DNA of 64,000 bases from Escherichia coli. GTDB lineage: Bacteria; Pseudomonadota; Gammaproteobacteria; Enterobacterales; Enterobacteriaceae. The notes under the pieces are model-generated. The model saw only the letters and a program-made list of their open reading frames with translations. It was not told the DNA's origin and searched no databases. The translations under genes and the position numbers were made by a program. This document shows positions 21,730-60,197 of this stretch, one piece after another (within the stretch, counting starts at the first letter, position 1; the number at the start of each line of letters is the position of its first letter). The stretch lies in assembly GCF_044324875.1 (NCBI RefSeq), contig NZ_CP172185.1; one strand, given 5' to 3'.

Positions 21730-22223
21730 TAAGCCCCCACGTAATTCCCTGACAGATACCACTCTTCACCCGATGCTGCGCGCTTGCTGCTTTTCTGTAA
21801 GCACTGCTCACGACGCGCCAGAAAATTGTTTCGTTCTGGCTGGGAGTGGCTTTCACGGAATGCCGCCATCCACACCGTTGCAGCACGACGGTATAAGCCC
21901 CTGGACTCCAGTTCTTCAGCCTGGCGGGTCAGGCACAAAATCACCCGGGGATCGTTAGTGCCGACATAGAAATTGCGCACAGGTCTAGTTTCACGAACTG
22001 GTTGTGGTTCCGGCTCCTGCGCTCTCTCAGTCAGGCGCGGGAAATGTCTGCGTGTATCTCCTTCACAACGGTGAGCCACACGCCCACTCTGACGTAACTT
22101 GCTTGCTGACTGCAGAACGCGCTGTCGTGAGTAACCTGCAAAAGCATCCGCAATGTCTCCGGAAGTACACCCCGGATGGGCTTCAATGAATTTCTGAACT
22201 TCATTCAAAAGACTCATAATCAC
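21729..22223 (-). CDS. Phage early protein, putative regulator
   Basis: 164-aa ORF whose stop overlaps the Dam start (TAATG). Confidence 0.4.
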   Translation of the reverse strand: MIMSLLNEVQKFIEAHPGCTSGDIADAFAGYSRQRVLQSASKLRQSGRVAHRCEGDTRRHFPRLTERAQEPEPQPVRETRPVRNFYVGTNDPRVILCLTRQAEELESRGLYRRAATVWMAAFRESHSQPERNNFLARREQCLQKSSKRAASGEEWYLSGNYVGA

Positions 22224-23161
22224 CCCCTGAATCCTGCCGGGATCTGGCTGTAGTCCACGTTGTCGTAACTGGCTTTGAAGTACGGGTCTTCGCGTTTTTC
22301 TGTGTGCGTGCTGACGGACGGCGATAAGCGCAGGGAAAGCTCATCCCATTTTTCCCGCAACTTCGACGGGCTGAGCACGTTACGGCACCAGAACGGATCG
22401 CGGCTGACGCGGCTGTACATCTCGCAGATTTGTTTGTGAGTACGACCATCCTGCACACACATCAGGCGAATTTCGTTTGCCCAGGCTGTCCAGTTAGGTT
22501 CTTTGGGACGAACCACCTCGCCGTCACATTCGGCGGCCTGCTCGTACAGGGCGATGATTTTTTTCCAGAGCCACTGTGCGCAGGTCAAATCATCCTGCGT
22601 TCCCCACTGGCGCTTTTTAGGGCTGAATACAACCGCATCAGGATGGCGAGTTAAAAAATCCTGTTCATCCATCTGCGTGTCCGGTTGCGAAGCGTCCGGA
22701 CGAGAAGGTTTTTTATCTGATGGATCATGTTTTGATTTTACTGACGGATCCCCGCCAGATTCTGACGGGTGAAAACCCGCTTTTTTGCCAGATTTCGACG
22801 CATCAAATTTTGACGGGTCAGATTTTGATGCGTCAGATTTTGACGGGTCAGAATCTGACAGTTGAGAAAATGCCGCTGCCTGAAGCTTCGCAACGTTAAG
22901 CTGATAAACATTCGACGCATTGCGGTTACCCTGGCGACGCGCCTTACGCGTTAACCAGCCTTCTGCTTCCAGCCGTGCGATAGCCGTTCTGACGGTACTC
23001 ATCCCCGCGCCAATCTGGCGGGCAATGGTTTCAATTGATGGCCAGCACACACCTTCGTCATTACTGAAATCAGCCAGGCGGGCCATAATTGCCACGCTGG
23101 ATAATTTCATGCCTGACGCAGCGCAACCATCCCATACATAGCCGGTTAATTTAGTGCTCAT
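22220..23161 (-). CDS. Replication initiation protein, O-like with N-terminal HTH
   Basis: 313-aa ORF with HTH near the N-terminus and an internal iteron-encoded repeat, in the O position. Confidence 0.65.
   Translation of the reverse strand: MSTKLTGYVWDGCAASGMKLSSVAIMARLADFSNDEGVCWPSIETIARQIGAGMSTVRTAIARLEAEGWLTRKARRQGNRNASNVYQLNVAKLQAAAFSQLSDSDPSKSDASKSDPSKFDASKSGKKAGFHPSESGGDPSVKSKHDPSDKKPSRPDASQPDTQMDEQDFLTRHPDAVVFSPKKRQWGTQDDLTCAQWLWKKIIALYEQAAECDGEVVRPKEPNWTAWANEIRLMCVQDGRTHKQICEMYSRVSRDPFWCRNVLSPSKLREKWDELSLRLSPSVSTHTEKREDPYFKASYDNVDYSQIPAGFRG
22762..22860. repeat. Iteron array (putative phage origin) inside the O-like gene
   Basis: About six direct repeats of a 12-15 bp unit related to GATTTTGACGGG. 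Confidence 0.5.
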
Positions 23162-24106: not shown

Positions 24107-24310
24107 CTAATCTTTCGGATAGATATCCGGTCTTAAGTCAGATTTCGTAATTGCACCTGACGTGCATTGCTCAAGTTTTTTAGCCAGCACAAAACTGGCT
24201 TTTTTATAGCCATTGAAAACCAGCCGTAAGTAGCCAGGTGTTGAGCCAACTTTTCCGGCCAACTCGCCCTGCTGTTCTTTGGTTAAAGAGTCCCAATACG
24301 CTTTCATACA
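24107..24310 (-). CDS. Cro-like repressor (YdaS/Cro family HTH)
   Basis: 67-aa product from Met 24310 with C-terminal DLRPDIYP-like motif; the listed longer ORF reads through the operator region. Confidence 0.7.
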   Translation of the reverse strand, partial: CMKAYWDSLTKEQQGELAGKVGSTPGYLRLVFNGYKKASFVLAKKLEQCTSGAITKSDLRPDIYPKD

Positions 24311-24397
24311 ATATGTACCTCCGGTATACATATTACATGATTGAAATGAACCTTCAAGATACTTGTACCTTAACGGTACAAGGGTTTTAATTTCGTT
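24311..24397. promoter_or_regulatory. Immunity switch: divergent promoters with palindromic operators
   Basis: Palindromes ATGTACC-tcc-GGTATACAT (24314-24332) and CTTGTACC-ttaac-GGTACAAG (24362-24382); no Shine-Dalgarno before the cI ATG. Confidence 0.6.
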
Positions 24398-25072
24398 ATG
24401 AAAACAATCCATGACATCCGGCGGTCTAACGCCAGAAAACTGAGAGATGGTGTTGGCGGGAATTCTTCCTTTGCCACTATGATTGATCGCGAGCCAACCC
24501 AGACCAGCAGGTTTATGGGAGATGGTGCTACTAAAAATATCGGTGACAGCATGGCACGACACATCGAAAAATGTTTCGACCTGCCTGTCGGATGGCTCGA
24601 TCAAGAACACCAGACAACGAACATCACAAAAAAACCTGATGTTTCAATCACTAATAAACAAATCACATTAGTCCCTGTCATATCATGGGTACAGGCCGGA
24701 GCATGGAAAGAAGTTGGATATTCTGAGGTTGATTTGAGCACAGCAGAAACGTATCCCTGCCCTGTACCCTGTGGGGAAATGACTTATATCTTGCGGGTGA
24801 TAGGTGATTCAATGATTGATGAGTACCGCCCGGGAGACATGATTTTTGTCGATCCTGAAGTACCTGCCTGCCACGGTGACGACGTTATTGCATTGATGCA
24901 CGATACAGGTGAAACCACCTTCAAAAGGTTGATAGAAGATGGGACACAGCGTTATCTCAAAGCGTTAAACCCAAACTGGCCTGAGCCTTACATTAAGATC
25001 AACGGTAATTGCTCTATAATTGGAACTGTGATTTTCTCAGGAAAACCAAGAAGATACAAAATCAAAGCCTAA
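24398..25072 (+). CDS. CI-like repressor with HTH and LexA-like S24 peptidase domain
   Basis: 224-aa ORF; N-terminal HTH and C-terminal GDSM...K autocleavage domain. Confidence 0.85.
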   Translation: MKTIHDIRRSNARKLRDGVGGNSSFATMIDREPTQTSRFMGDGATKNIGDSMARHIEKCFDLPVGWLDQEHQTTNITKKPDVSITNKQITLVPVISWVQAGAWKEVGYSEVDLSTAETYPCPVPCGEMTYILRVIGDSMIDEYRPGDMIFVDPEVPACHGDDVIALMHDTGETTFKRLIEDGTQRYLKALNPNWPEPYIKINGNCSIIGTVIFSGKPRRYKIKA

Positions 25073-25084
25073 TCAATGTTTATG

Positions 25085-25108
25085 AACCTGCTTCGGCAGG
25101 TTTTTTTA
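25085..25108 (+). terminator. Intrinsic terminator after the repressor gene
   Basis: CCTGC-ttcg-GCAGG hairpin followed by seven T. Confidence 0.6.
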
Positions 25109-25111
25109 TAC

Positions 25112-25140
25112 TTGACAATGTACCTTTGGGATACATAATG
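25112..25140 (+). promoter_or_regulatory. pL-like promoter with overlapping operator
   Basis: TTGACA, 16-17 bp spacer containing TGTACC...GGATACA operator-like half-sites, then CATAAT. Confidence 0.55.
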
Positions 25141-25226
25141 TGCCCAAGAGAAACAACAAACAGGCAGGACGCCCACGAAGTAGCCGCCTGGAGCATATGA
25201 AGTCTAGGATGATTCGTTAGCAACAA

Positions 25227-25261
25227 AAAAGCGCCCTACAGGACGCTTAGCTCTTTAACAA
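25227..25261 (+). promoter_or_regulatory. Hairpin plus rrn-type boxA-like element in pL leader
   Basis: GC-rich hairpin 25231-25246 then GCTCTTTAACAA at 25250-25261, matching the rrn boxA core. Confidence 0.4.
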
Positions 25262-25306: not shown

Positions 25307-25513
25307 ATGCACAAAACAGAACCAAAAATCGTCGCGCCCGGATACACAAATGAGGAAATTTACGAGTGGATGGCAAAGAAGCTGGCAGCTATAAACCAGC
25401 TTCGTGAAGTGCTGTCTTATCGACAGGAAACAATAGACTCCTTAAAAAAACTGGATCAGGAAATCACGGTTTTATCACAGGATGTTACTTTAGATATTGT
25501 GCAGACAAATTAG
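25307..25513 (+). CDS. Hypothetical 68-aa protein, first gene after pL
   Basis: Strong GAGGAGG ribosome-binding site 6 nt before ATG; no arginine-rich motif. Confidence 0.5.
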   Translation: MHKTEPKIVAPGYTNEEIYEWMAKKLAAINQLREVLSYRQETIDSLKKLDQEITVLSQDVTLDIVQTN

Positions 25514-25919
25514 GATCCCATTCATTTTCGTCAAAATCATCAAAGTGATGAATTTGTGATCTCCAGTCTCGATAATCTAAAAATTTCTGGGCGGTTACGC
25601 TTATTTTATCAAGCGTGAGTTCATCCTGAATTGAAAGAAGAAGTTCATCAAATTTCATCTCATTAATCTGTTTTGGCATCCAGTGATGCTTCATCAGAAT
25701 AAGGTGAACCAGAGCTTTTTTCCCATTCAACTGATTATAGGGAGTGCCGAATTTCTTCCGGTGCTCATGTAAGACAAGGTCCAGAAGAGTAAGTAATGTT
25801 GCCCTTGATTCAACTTTGCTTATTTCGACTGATGACACTACCCCACTGATTTCAATGCCCCGATACTTTCCAACATTTTCACAGTGGGATTTGTACAGCG
25901 TATAGATATTACCGGACAT
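25485..25919 (-). CDS. Hypothetical 144-aa protein antisense to the pL operon
   Basis: AT-rich ORF with AAGGA ribosome-binding site; 3' end overlaps 25307-25513 convergently by 29 nt. Confidence 0.5.
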   Translation of the reverse strand: MSGNIYTLYKSHCENVGKYRGIEISGVVSSVEISKVESRATLLTLLDLVLHEHRKKFGTPYNQLNGKKALVHLILMKHHWMPKQINEMKFDELLLSIQDELTLDKISVTAQKFLDYRDWRSQIHHFDDFDENEWDPNLSAQYLK

Positions 25920-26070
25920 TTCTTTTCCTTTTGCGTTGTTGGGGATAACCAGATTAACCGAATCCTTGTTGTTGGGGAATAACCAGGTCCACCTCGCCTG
26001 ATGTGGCTAAAAGCAGGCACATAACAGCTAAGTATTTTCAACCAGAGAGAATCCTTAGCGTTGTGGTGAA

Positions 26071-26387
26071 TGCGGCTCAGCGCACGCGGGTTAAGGTTGA
26101 GGCTGACAGTCGACCTTCTGTGGATACCCACCCGCCTGGTGTGCAACCTTCGCCAGGCACCGGGAGGCACCCGGCACCACAACTTTATGCTGCGTGTAGT
26201 CTTGGCGGTACCAGCTTTTACCCTTGCTTCCGGCTGGTACCGTCCTTTTTACAAAACAGAGAAGAGCATTACCGGACGACGGGCTCATAACTCAATCCAT
26301 CCGGGCGGCTGCCACCGCAGGTGTTCTTCTCTGTTTTGTGGAGAAACTAATCGGCTTTGCAGGGTCGATATGATGAGGAGCAGCAAA
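26071..26387. other. GC-rich structured noncoding segment (candidate cis-acting RNA or ncRNA)
   Basis: Nested inverted repeats including a 12-bp stem GGCGGTACCAGC/GCTGGTACCGTC (26211-26251); short ORFs in several frames without ribosome-binding sites. Confidence 0.3.
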
Positions 26388-56350: not shown

Positions 56351-56426
56351 TGGTGGGTCGTGCAGGATTCGAACCTGCGACCAATTGATTAAAAGTCAAC
56401 TGCTCTACCAACTGAGCTAACGACCC
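56351..56426 (-). tRNA. lysQ: tRNA-Lys (UUU)
   Basis: Reverse complement is a 76-nt tRNA-Lys with CCA end; position 7 of the lysT operon. Confidence 0.95.
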
Positions 56427-56459
56427 CTTGCGGGATTATGCTGCTTTAATCATTCAGGA

Positions 56460-56535
56460 TGGTGGGTCGTGCAGGATTCGAACCTGCGACCAATTGATTA
56501 AAAGTCAACTGCTCTACCAACTGAGCTAACGACCC
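56460..56535 (-). tRNA. lysZ: tRNA-Lys (UUU)
   Basis: Identical 76-nt tRNA-Lys copy. Confidence 0.95.
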
Positions 56536-56583
56536 ATACGGGTGTTACCTGAAAGATTTCTACTCGGAACCAATCTTTAAAAT

Positions 56584-56600
56584 TGGTGGGTCGTGCAGGA
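56584..56600 (-). repeat. tRNA-Lys 3'-end fragment at start of a ~70-bp spacer repeat
   Basis: TGGTGGGTCGTGCAGGA then diverges; the spacer recurs at 57077-57150. Confidence 0.5.
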
Positions 56601-56681
56601 TGACTCGCTTCGCTCGCCCTACGGGCCGTTGCTGGCGCAACGTTATCCTTCACGCTTAACATCTGAGTTTGATGTTAAAAT

Positions 56682-56757
56682 TGGTGGGTCGTGCAGGATT
56701 CGAACCTGCGACCAATTGATTAAAAGTCAACTGCTCTACCAACTGAGCTAACGACCC
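56682..56757 (-). tRNA. lysY: tRNA-Lys (UUU)
   Basis: 76-nt tRNA-Lys. Confidence 0.95.
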
Positions 56758-56760
56758 GAG

Positions 56761-56836
56761 TGGTGGGTGATGACGGGATCGAACCGCCGACCCCCTCCTT
56801 GTAAGGGAGGTGCTCTCCCAGCTGAGCTAATCACCC
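56761..56836 (-). tRNA. valZ: tRNA-Val (UAC)
   Basis: Reverse complement GGGTGATTAGCTCAGCTGGGAGAGCACCTCCCTTACAAGGAGG...CCA. Confidence 0.95.
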
Positions 56837-56887
56837 GATACTGCGCTGGATACTACAAACTACTTCCACCGAACCCACCGTAATTAG

Positions 56888-56963
56888 TGGTGGGTCGTGC
56901 AGGATTCGAACCTGCGACCAATTGATTAAAAGTCAACTGCTCTACCAACTGAGCTAACGACCC
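56888..56963 (-). tRNA. lysW: tRNA-Lys (UUU)
   Basis: 76-nt tRNA-Lys. Confidence 0.95.
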
Positions 56964-56965
56964 GG

Positions 56966-57041
56966 TGGTGGGTGATGACGGGATCGAACCGCCGACCCCC
57001 TCCTTGTAAGGGAGGTGCTCTCCCAGCTGAGCTAATCACCC
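56966..57041 (-). tRNA. valT: tRNA-Val (UAC)
   Basis: 76-nt tRNA-Val. Confidence 0.95.
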
Positions 57042-57076
57042 GATACTACGCTGGATACTACAACTAACTAGGTTAG

Positions 57077-57093
57077 TGGTGGATCGTGCAGGA
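57077..57093 (-). repeat. Second tRNA 3'-end fragment with spacer repeat
   Basis: TGGTGGATCGTGCAGGA followed by the same ~55-nt spacer as at 56601. Confidence 0.5.
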
Positions 57094-57176
57094 TGACTCG
57101 ACTTCGTCTCGCCCTTCGGGCCGTTGCTGATGCAACGTTATCCTTCACGTTTTACTACCGCTTCCACCTTAGCGAT

Positions 57177-57252
57177 TGGTGGGTCGTGCAGGATTCGAAC
57201 CTGCGACCAATTGATTAAAAGTCAACTGCTCTACCAACTGAGCTAACGACCC
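57177..57252 (-). tRNA. lysT: tRNA-Lys (UUU)
   Basis: 76-nt tRNA-Lys, first gene of the operon. Confidence 0.95.
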
Positions 57253-57415
57253 ACTTTTCGTTGCTTTCGGGTTGTTTGATATCCCGTGGCAACGGCGGCA
57301 TATATTACTGATTTCAGACTTGAGCGCAACAAAAATTTCGATGCAGATCACTCAACTGCTTATGATTCGCACGACACGACCAGAAATAATGCGACTTCTG
57401 GTCGTGTGTTATGCA

Positions 57416-58207
57416 TTACATCGCGTTCAGACGTTTTTGCGCCTGTTTAGCGCCATCAGTACCAGGATATTTACTGATAACCTGCTGGTATACGGCTTTC
57501 GCTTTTGCGGTGTCACCTTTGTCCTGCATGATGACGCCGACTTTAAACATCGCATCTGCAGCCTTTGGTGACTTCGGATAGTTTTTCACTACCGAAGCAA
57601 AATAGTACGCCGCATCATCTTTTTTACCCTTGTTGTAGTTTAACTGACCCAGCCAATAATTGGCGTTTGGCAGGTAAGTTGAATCAGGGTAATTTTTGAT
57701 GAAATTCTGAAATGCCACCATTGCGTCATCCTGGCGGGATTTATCCTGCACCAGCGCAATAGCTGCATTGTAATCCGTGTTTGCATCACCGCTTTTCACC
57801 GGCGCGCCAGCATTCGCAGTACCAGCATCAGCTGTCGGCGTCGTTGATGCCGCCGCACCGCTTTGATCGCCGCTGGTTGATTGCGCCGCTGCACCACCGC
57901 TGCTGAGGCTATCGATCTGCAACAGGATCTGCTTTTGCCGCTCCACGACCTGATTCAGTTGATACTGATTTTCCTGAATCTGACCACGCAGGGAATCAAT
58001 ATCGGATTGATTATCAGAGAGTTGTTGCTGGAGTTGGGTTAAAAGCTGGCTGTGAGCATTTGAAATACGCTCAAGTTGAGTGACGCGGTCTTCGACCGAG
58101 CCTGAGCCGACACTACTGATTGGTGCCTGAGCAAAAGCGGCCCAGGGGGCCGCTATACCAACCAGTAACGACAGACTCAATAGTTGATGTCTGAAGTTAC
58201 TGCTCAT
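57416..58207 (-). CDS. cpoB: Cell division coordinator CpoB (YbgF)
   Basis: 263-aa product with signal peptide, coiled coil and TPR region. Confidence 0.95.
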   Translation of the reverse strand: MSSNFRHQLLSLSLLVGIAAPWAAFAQAPISSVGSGSVEDRVTQLERISNAHSQLLTQLQQQLSDNQSDIDSLRGQIQENQYQLNQVVERQKQILLQIDSLSSGGAAAQSTSGDQSGAAASTTPTADAGTANAGAPVKSGDANTDYNAAIALVQDKSRQDDAMVAFQNFIKNYPDSTYLPNANYWLGQLNYNKGKKDDAAYYFASVVKNYPKSPKAADAMFKVGVIMQDKGDTAKAKAVYQQVISKYPGTDGAKQAQKRLNAM

Positions 58208-58216
58208 GCAATTCTC

Positions 58217-58762
<546 letters not shown>

Positions 58763-58772
58763 TTAATTATTA

Positions 58773-60065
58773 TCACAGATACGGCGACCAGGCAGGAAAT
58801 TTGACCTGTCCATCAGTTGCCGGAAGACGCGCTTTGAAACGCCCATCTGTAGAAACCAAATTCAGCACGGATCCCATCCCCTGAGAAGAGCTGTAGATTA
58901 CCATAGTGCCGTTAGGTGCCAGACTTGGCGTTTCATCCAGGAACGTGGACGACAGAACTTGTACGCCTCCCGTTGCCAGATCTTGTTTGGCAATGTGCTG
59001 CTGCCCACCATTGGAGCTGACCATTACCATAAATTTACCGTCGCTGCTGACATCCGCATCCTGGTTCTGCGAACCTTCCCAGGTAATACGTTGTGGCGCA
59101 CCGCCGTTGATATTCACTTTATAAACCTGTGGACGACCGGCCTGGTCAGAAGTAAATGCCAGGTTCTGGCTGTCCGGGAACCAGGTCGGTTCGGTATTGT
59201 TACTGCGACCATCCGTCACCTGGCGGATCTGACCAGAAGCCAAATCCATTACGTACAGGTTCAGACTACCGGTTTTCGACAAGGCGAATGCCAGTTTGCT
59301 GCCGTCTGGCGAGAATGCAGGTGCACCGTTGTGACGCGGGAACGAAGCCACCTGACGTACTGCGCCATTTGCCAGCGTTTGGATGACCAGCGCGGAACGA
59401 CCGCTTTCGAAGGTCACATAAGCCAGTTTAGAACCGTCTGGTGACCACGCCGGAGACATCAGCGGCTGCGGTGAACGGTGAACGACAAACTGGTTGTAAC
59501 CGTCATAGTCAGATACGCGCAGTTCATACGGGAACTGACCGCCGTTGGTCTGAACAACGTAGGCAATACGGGTACGGAACGCACCTTTAATGCCGGTCAG
59601 TTTTTCAAACACTTCATCACTGGCGGTATGACCAGCATAACGCAGCCACTGCTTGTTCACTTTGTACGAGTTCTGAGCAAGTACAGTACCCGGTGCGCCG
59701 CCAGTGTCAACAAGTTGATAAGCAACATTGTAAGAACCGTCCGGATTCGGAGTGACCTGGCCGACAACCACTGCGTCGATCCCCAGCGCAGACCATGCAG
59801 CTGGTTGTACTTCCTGCGCACTACCCGGCTGCTGTGGCAGACGAGCGCGATCTAACGGATTAAATTTACCGCTGTTACGCAAGTCAGCAGCAACGATACC
59901 GCCAATATCTTCAGGTGCCGCACCAGGACCCGCCCACTGGAAAGGAACAACGCCAATAGGACGACCGGAATCTACACCGCTGTCGATCACAATGCGGACT
60001 TCAGCATGCAGAACTGATGCCCACAGTATGAGAAAACCAAATGCTACTCGTAATGCCTGCTTCAT
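58773..60065 (-). CDS. tolB: Tol-Pal system periplasmic protein TolB
   Basis: 430-aa product from [14 protein letters not shown]. Confidence 0.95.
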
Positions 60066-60197
60066 CATATCTCCCTTATCTGGACCGATGGCCCACGATA
60101 ATTTAGCAGAATGTTAACAAACTAAAATACACAAAACTACCAGAACCCCGTGGCAACCGGTGCCTGATGTTGACCGTCGGAACAGTCAACATCGCGA

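Follow-up and report, generated by a model that had tools for sequence, protein, structure and literature searches.

Within the window (the whole 64-kb stretch of DNA that was analysed), the spacer between a cro-like gene and a phage repressor gene, together with the promoter region beyond the repressor gene, very probably forms the OR/OL operator set of an e14/SfV-type lambdoid immunity switch. Two palindromes in the spacer (O1 and O3) and one in the pL promoter (OL1) are supported by their sequence as operators, and we infer that they are the sites of the repressor and Cro. The best of these palindromes overlaps the repressor's own promoter, pRM, and a K-12 locus identical in this segment yields a published leaderless repressor mRNA.

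Gene content and immunity group of the locus

The genes on either side of the spacer, and the spacer itself, were as follows:

24107–24307, minus strand: cro-like gene, ymfT/croE homologue, 66 aa (ORF with its ATG at 24307)
24308–24397: cro–repressor spacer (OR region), 90 bp, as is the K-12 e14 ymfT/ymfK spacer
24398–25072, plus strand: repressor gene, ymfK/cohE homologue, 224 aa, with an N-terminal HTH and an S24 autocleavage domain

The Cro ORF gave weak Pfam matches (YdaS_toxin and HTH_3) and differed by one residue from K-12 YmfT, the gene being named ymfT in E. coli genome annotations. The next gene leftward of cro encodes a CII(CP76)-type regulator. Residues 93–212 of the repressor matched Peptidase_S24 (E 1.5e-26), AG and GDSM motifs were seen in its translation, and a profile of its first 73 residues matched PDB 5d50_A ('Repressor', phage DNA-binding domain; E 4.5e-8). 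We take the 5D50 chain to be Rep of Salmonella phage SPC32H; it has 199 residues compared with 224 in the window repressor, and the match is to the N-terminal domain only. SPC32H Rep is reported to be a tetramer when bound to DNA, and its inactivation to depend on an antirepressor, not on self-cleavage (PMC9638917).

The arrangement is that of a lambdoid switch. A small HTH Cro and an S24 repressor are divergent with a 90-bp spacer between them, inverted-repeat operators lie over both divergent promoters (the promoter positions being partly inferred, with pRM anchored by the K-12 transcription start site), and operators occur again at pL beyond the repressor gene.

The cro–repressor–pL region was 93–99% identical to those of SfIV, SfV, cdtI, Ayreon and Stx2c phages, and the repressor N-terminal domain was 99–100% identical in the same phages. 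The repressor DNA-binding domain, Cro and the operators are thus near-identical, as expected within one e14/SfV immunity group. Differences between the window and SfV/SfIV-type phages are of single bases only, mostly in the N5 centres of the operators. In the SfV record U82619.2 a 'putative operator region' corresponds exactly to 24313–24381, i.e. to the outer edges of O1 and O3, and the terminator is annotated too. N and cIII are not reported for SfV/SfIV (PMC3851460). Genes at this position are annotated as ymfK/ymfT in E. coli genomes, and the immunity region of K-12 e14 comprises ymfK/cohE, ymfT/croE, ymfL and ymfM. The immunity type is very common: of 5426 complete E. coli genomes, 1962 carry a match to the module, which is found also in Shigella serotype-converting phages and in phages named as Stx2c-converting or cdt-carrying. 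On the far side of both pL and the CII-like gene, the prophage resembles SfIV, not e14.

Other features of the window were recorded. Five tRNA-Lys and two tRNA-Val genes lie at 56351–60068, with ORFs sized like cpoB, pal and tolB. Host DNA thus makes up the right end of the window, and the prophage ends before about 56 kb. The replication-protein ORF (22220–23161, minus strand) contains a Ser/Asp/Lys-rich repetitive stretch (SDPSKSDASKSDPSKFDASKSG, 22600–22900), on which an Rfam match to mir-5880 was spurious.

Probable operators in the cro–repressor spacer and at pL

The spacer had been predicted to be 87 bp long and to hold two palindromes sharing the half-site TGTACC. Measured from the cro ATG (24307) to the repressor ATG (24398) it is 90 bp; both palindromes were recovered, one of them imperfect, and a degenerate candidate was found between them:

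24313–24331: operator O1, ATGTACC-TCCGG-TATACAT, imperfect, over the predicted pR −10/+1 and the cro Shine-Dalgarno sequence (SD)
24318–24322, minus strand: cro SD GGAGG (complement CCTCC), within O1; anti-SD pairing −10.8 kcal/mol
24346–24364: candidate weak operator O2, ATGAACC-TTCAA-GATACTT, 2 mismatches, over the pR −35
24363–24381: operator O3, TTGTACC-TTAAC-GGTACAA, perfect palindrome with 0 mismatches, at −35 to −17 from the repressor start

The arms of O3 extend to a perfect 8 bp once 24362 and 24382 are counted. The same half-sites had also been expected within a pL-like promoter at 25119–25136. They recur there, in a site that spans 25118–25136, and the pL side comprises:

25084–25110, plus strand: intrinsic terminator 3′ of the repressor gene; hairpin (25084–25103) of −11.6 kcal/mol, z −4.6, then U7
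25112–25139, plus strand: pL, TTGACA-16-CATAAT, 11/12 consensus matches, called by the promoter scan
25118–25136: operator OL1, ATGTACC-TTTGG-GATACAT, which fills the 16-bp pL spacer; 0 mismatches to the degenerate pattern
25138–25156: operator OL2, ATGTGCC-CAAGA-GAAACAA, over the pL −10/+1; its centre is 20 bp from that of OL1

The terminator is annotated also in SfV and Ayreon; pL is annotated as a promoter in phage Ayreon and is identical in K-12, SfV and Ayreon. Two leftward terminator-like hairpins were seen on the minus strand in the pL leader (25160–25176 and 25229–25248), which might keep convergent transcripts from the minus-strand ORF at 25485–25919 out of the repressor gene. Further along the pL-driven operon, an STnc100-like sRNA match (26042–26253, plus strand) scored 42.8 bits against a gathering threshold of 47 (E 4.8e-7), and a weak DicF-like match (26191–26245) overlaps it. 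Over the switch itself, the Rfam scan detected no known RNA family.

Chance similarity in an AT-rich spacer, a reading to which we assign next to no probability, is already refuted. The pattern TGTAYC-N5-GRTACA with ≤1 mismatch occurred four times in the 64 kb compared with 0.28 expected, and none of 100 shuffles reached four. Three of the four matches are O1, O3 and OL1, all in regulatory spacers, and the fourth, at 58331, lies in a host ORF. Six of the 23 TGTACC/GGTACA hexamers of the window fall within 24314–25119. The one observation in favor of chance is that at 2 mismatches the motif was not enriched window-wide (9 vs. 4.8 expected); it is outweighed by the shuffles, by the positional conservation across genera described below, and by a half-site matrix, its training set confined to sites from Hafnia, Pseudomonas and Vibrio phages, which ranked O3 first, OL1 third and O1 fourth of 63,982 window positions. 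The second-best matrix match (58330–58348, in the host ORF beside the tRNA Lys/Val cluster) was set aside as chance. Two single half-sites in the repressor ORF, 24688–24693 (GGTACA) and 24762–24780 (CTGTACC, matrix rank 5), are probably chance as well, because each has one good half and no proper partner.

Relatives were collected by tblastn with the repressor N-terminal domain as the query. Identity in this domain was 74% in Hafnia phage yong2, 44–59% in Pseudomonas phages and 55% in a Vibrio phage. Their cro–repressor spacers carry TGTACC-N5-(G/T)GTACA over the cro SD, and TGTAC(C/A/T/G)-N5-GGTAC(A/T) with its 17-mer core at −34 to −18 from the repressor ATG in 5/5 divergent phages; 5 nt follow the O3-type site and then a hexamer at −12 to −7 (TTTAAT, TGGAAT, TGAAAT or TAACAT). 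In an alignment of seven phages the invariant columns were the cro start, GTACCTCC (O1 plus SD, so that the O1 left half and CCTCC are unchanged in all seven), ACC..CAAG (O2 left half and pR −35), TGTAC and GGTAC of O3, T−12/A−8/T−7, and the ATG. Two of the database records contain apparent annotation errors: in Hafnia phage yong2 (1501–1618) the repressor CDS starts 39 codons 3′ of the conserved N-terminus, and in Vibrio phage p42 (1219–1494) a repressor-like gene is noted as 'cro' and a cro-like CDS is extended over the operator region.

The variation within the immunity group follows the same lines. Viral contigs were scanned for diverse relatives, but all loci returned were 99–100% identical in the matched domain, too close for deep comparison and suited instead to a population footprint. 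From 80 viral contigs, SfV and Ayreon, 82 loci in all, each at least 99% identical in the repressor N-terminal domain, 34 spacer haplotypes were obtained. Among these haplotypes, 2/24 positions of the O1 and O3 half-sites were variable compared with 7/10 positions of their central N5 (Fisher p = 6.5e-4), and the pRM −10 hexamer did not vary (0/6). OL1 and OL2 showed the same pattern, the OL1 half-sites being fixed and its N5 taking many forms among 74 relatives. With the matrix ranks and the half-sites that are invariant across genera, this concentration of variation in the N5 supports the operator reading of the original prediction.

The window carries two half-site variants of its own. The K-12 e14 spacer differs from it by one base, 24326, in the O1 right half: A here (TATACA), and G in K-12 e14 and many of the 34 haplotypes (TGTACA). 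TGTACA is nearer to the consensus, so that the change from A to G, one of the two half-site variants in the population, improves the motif match, and the O1 right half of the window is the weaker one. The pL/OL region of K-12 e14 is two bases off, with the half-sites at pL and OL1 the same as in the window. In OL2, K-12 and all haplotypes listed (33 of the 74 relatives as sequence) read TGTACC or TGTATC, N5, GAAACA. The window has G, not A, at 25142 (TGTGCC), alone among the haplotypes listed and K-12, which weakens the left half; its matrix rank here is 23, at chance level. By its sequence this is a possible operator-weakening variant specific to this prophage.

TGTAC sites were kept in relatives whose repressor has the recognition helix TQ(T/V)SR, and TGTAC sites are absent from the Bordetella and Moraxella relatives, whose helix lacks TQ(T/V)SR. 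The phages of this comparison also have homologous Cro proteins (32–62% identity). Judged from these alignments, repressor, Cro and operators travel as one module, and covariation cannot separate repressor binding from Cro binding because Cro is homologous in the same relatives. The palindromes might be targets of Cro (YmfT) or of the CII-like protein alone, with the S24 repressor recognising something else, and a Cro homologue does accompany the motif in every relative that carries it. We consider this highly improbable: the motif lies in the pL spacer 3′ of the repressor gene, as expected for a maintenance repressor, no other repeated motif is common to OR and OL, and the motif is gone where the repressor recognition helix is altered. 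The site of YdaT is TTGATT-N6-AATCAA (PMC9986795). It is absent from the region; a search for a pRE-like CII/YdaT site of this form returned only chance-level matches with 3 mismatches, none informative near the switch. The palindrome at 24362–24382 could also be an RNA hairpin, acting not as a protein site but as an intrinsic terminator or attenuator for transcripts that reach the repressor gene from upstream. It was picked up by the terminator scan (8-bp stem, then GGTTTTAATT), and its RNA has a folding energy of −13.1 kcal/mol (z −3.8), so that a stable hairpin and a U-run are both present here. In relatives, however, the Hafnia and Pseudomonas hairpins are no better than shuffles (z −0.2 and −0.6) and no U-run follows. 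What is conserved is the half-site sequence, not pairing through compensatory change; O1 and OL1 have the same half-sites without a U-run, and the mapped K-12 transcription start lies downstream of the O3 palindrome. We rejected the terminator reading, to which we give hardly any probability, since the relatives retain the half-site sequence but neither the hairpin nor the U-run. O1, O3 and OL1 are thus best read as operators.

The status of O2 is less clear. It may be that only O1 and O3 are real in OR, each controlling one promoter independently, and that O2 is the pR −35 beside a stray half-site; we put this at somewhat under an even chance. By the matrix, O2 is no better than chance: it ranks 13, and shuffled sequence is expected to hold 8.6 positions with such a score. 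None of the relatives has a good right half there, and the O2 and O3 centres are separated by 17 bp here and by 16 bp in Pseudomonas and Vibrio, whereas the spacing at OL is 20 bp. The invariant CAAG, complementary to the pR −35 TTG and unchanged across genera, is accounted for by that promoter element. Against this, three Pseudomonas phages carry a perfect TGTACC where the left half of O2 lies; the enteric phages read TGAACC there, and ACC is invariant. Only singleton variants occurred in the O2 half-sites among the 34 haplotypes, and the O2 centre is at ∼−43 relative to the repressor start, where OR2 classically lies in lambda.

The literature consulted contained no EMSA, footprint or ChIP on YmfK/YmfT, and a search for the exact operator strings gave no match. 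The main text of the Reg-Seq preprint lists ymfT among its targets and reports no footprint for it.

Predicted OR promoters and leaderless repressor transcript

The promoter elements assigned in the spacer were:

24330–24357, minus strand: predicted pR; −35 TTGAAG (24357–24352), 16-bp spacer, −10 TAATAT (24335–24330)
24363–24391, plus strand: pRM; −35 TTGTAC (24363–24368), 17-bp spacer, −10 TTTAAT (24386–24391)
24398, plus strand: predicted transcription start, the A of the repressor ATG, by identity with the mapped K-12 ymfK

The pR hexamers would place its start near 24323. Both pR and pRM match the consensus at 8/12 positions and neither was called by the promoter scan. The TTTAAT hexamer, which the original prediction placed 7–12 nt before the repressor ATG, is indeed at −12 to −7. 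It is without the usually critical A at −11, and its T−12, A−8 and T−7 are invariant across the seven phages. Among the −10 hexamers of the relatives, A at −11 was found only in the Vibrio one. The Pseudomonas relatives have TG at −15/−14 (an extended −10) before TGGAAT or TGAAAT, where the enteric copies have GG.

The absence of an SD before the repressor ATG, also predicted, was confirmed by pairing energies. Because a background SD distribution built on crude ORF calls carried too much noise to be of use, cro was contrasted with the repressor gene instead: the best anti-SD pairing at −16 to −4 of the repressor ATG was −2.7 kcal/mol vs. −10.8 kcal/mol for cro. An AAGGG at −18 to −14 (−4.3 kcal/mol) is too distant. 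The −10 element is thus placed for a start on the A of AUG and no SD is present, the configuration of a leaderless mRNA.

Published dRNA-seq of K-12 ymfK reports a class-I start, RVS_(I)-1202156, that equals the gene start 1202156, i.e. a leader of 0 nt (PMC4681348, Table S3), and ymfK is one of only five leaderless E. coli mRNAs (Romero et al., 2014; PMC4681348). K-12 e14 and the window are identical from 24327 to the repressor ATG. The leaderless repressor transcript foreseen from the sequence is therefore supported both by the conserved TnnAAT at −12 to −7 and by the published K-12 start (PMC4681348).

Comparison with known switches and proposed operation

In lambda, the repressor and cro genes are divergent, palindromic 17-bp operators are shared with a pL behind a terminator, and the S24 repressor is autocleaving. 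The window resembles it in the divergent repressor and cro, the operators shared with pL behind a terminator, the S24 repressor and the transcript from AUG; the maintenance transcript of lambda cI starts at its AUG (cited in PMC4681348 and PMC8630535). The switch departs from lambda in its operator sequence, which is unrelated, in its YdaS-type Cro and in its CP76/YdaT-type CII. In OR, the window has two strong sites separated by 50 bp and a doubtful third 17 bp from O3, compared with three sites 23–24 bp apart in lambda; its best site is over pRM, not pR, and it has two OL sites, not three. Three evenly spaced OR sites with the strongest over pR, the lambda-specific arrangement, were thus not found, which leaves membership of the lambdoid class unaffected.

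Prophage CP-933P of E. coli O157:H7 (PaaR2, YdaS, YdaT) has a 97-bp spacer; 5′ RACE showed its repressor mRNA to be leaderless, and both proteins gave footprints on palindromic operators in OR and at a pL-like promoter (PMC8630535). It shares with the window a YdaS-type Cro, a YdaT-type CII and the same gene architecture, and differs in its repressor PaaR2, which is not S24-type, and in its GTTTAGTAA-based 18-bp palindromes. The cI of H-19B/Stx1-phage is 40.7% identical to the window repressor in the N-terminal domain, and its sites have the same 6-N5-6 geometry with another half-site (TTTAYC-N5-GATAAA). Unlike the window repressor gene, H-19B cI has a recognisable SD (AGAGGG, −6.3 kcal/mol), so that nothing in the H-19B sequence suggests a leaderless transcript.

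We propose that dimers of a LexA-like YmfK/CohE-type repressor, and of a YmfT-type Cro, would bind the 17–19-bp (A/T)TGTACC-N5-GGTACA(A/T) sites. O1 would cover the pR start region and the cro ribosome-binding site, with a possible weak O2 over the pR −35, and occupancy of O1/O2 would turn off cro and the lytic and replication genes. O3 would cover the −35 and spacer of pRM. Since its core at −34 to −18 must compete with RNA polymerase, repressor or Cro bound there would limit or turn off repressor synthesis, by negative autoregulation or by Cro shut-off, respectively. That the best palindrome lies over the repressor's own promoter suggests negative autoregulation. Such a placement is the opposite of the lambda affinity order, so the order of occupancy is uncertain. 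With its start on the A of the ATG, the pRM maintenance transcript would have neither leader nor SD. OL1, in the pL spacer, and OL2, over the pL −10/+1, are two helical turns apart, and through them the same repressor would silence the leftward early operon. Upon DNA damage, RecA-stimulated self-cleavage of the S24 domain would lift repression; SOS induction is implied by the S24 domain with its AG and GDSM motifs.

This switch is already known: its leaderless transcript is published and its operator region was annotated as putative in 2002, so the present work adds detail, not a new principle. What is added is (i) the cross-genus conservation, (ii) OL2 and the doubtful O2, (iii) the O3-over-pRM geometry, and (iv) the two strain-specific operator variants. 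Four points went beyond the original prediction: OL2, the degenerate O2 in the middle of OR, the overlap of the best palindrome with pRM, and the identity of the module as the e14/SfV one. A more ambitious reading is offered as a speculation that we think unlikely to hold: a two-operator switch wired unlike that of lambda and predominantly negatively autoregulated, in which the highest-affinity site, O3, would sit on pRM and one strong operator would double as cro ribosome-binding-site DNA. In this reading the degenerate O2, which abuts O3 (16–17 bp centre-to-centre), and O3 may be occupied alternately, not cooperatively, and the design would extend from enterobacterial phages to those of Pseudomonas and Vibrio. 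Biologically, the locus is a textbook-style lambdoid switch, and knowledge of its exact operators, with their natural variants, helps to predict shared superinfection immunity among prophages as well as their ease of induction.
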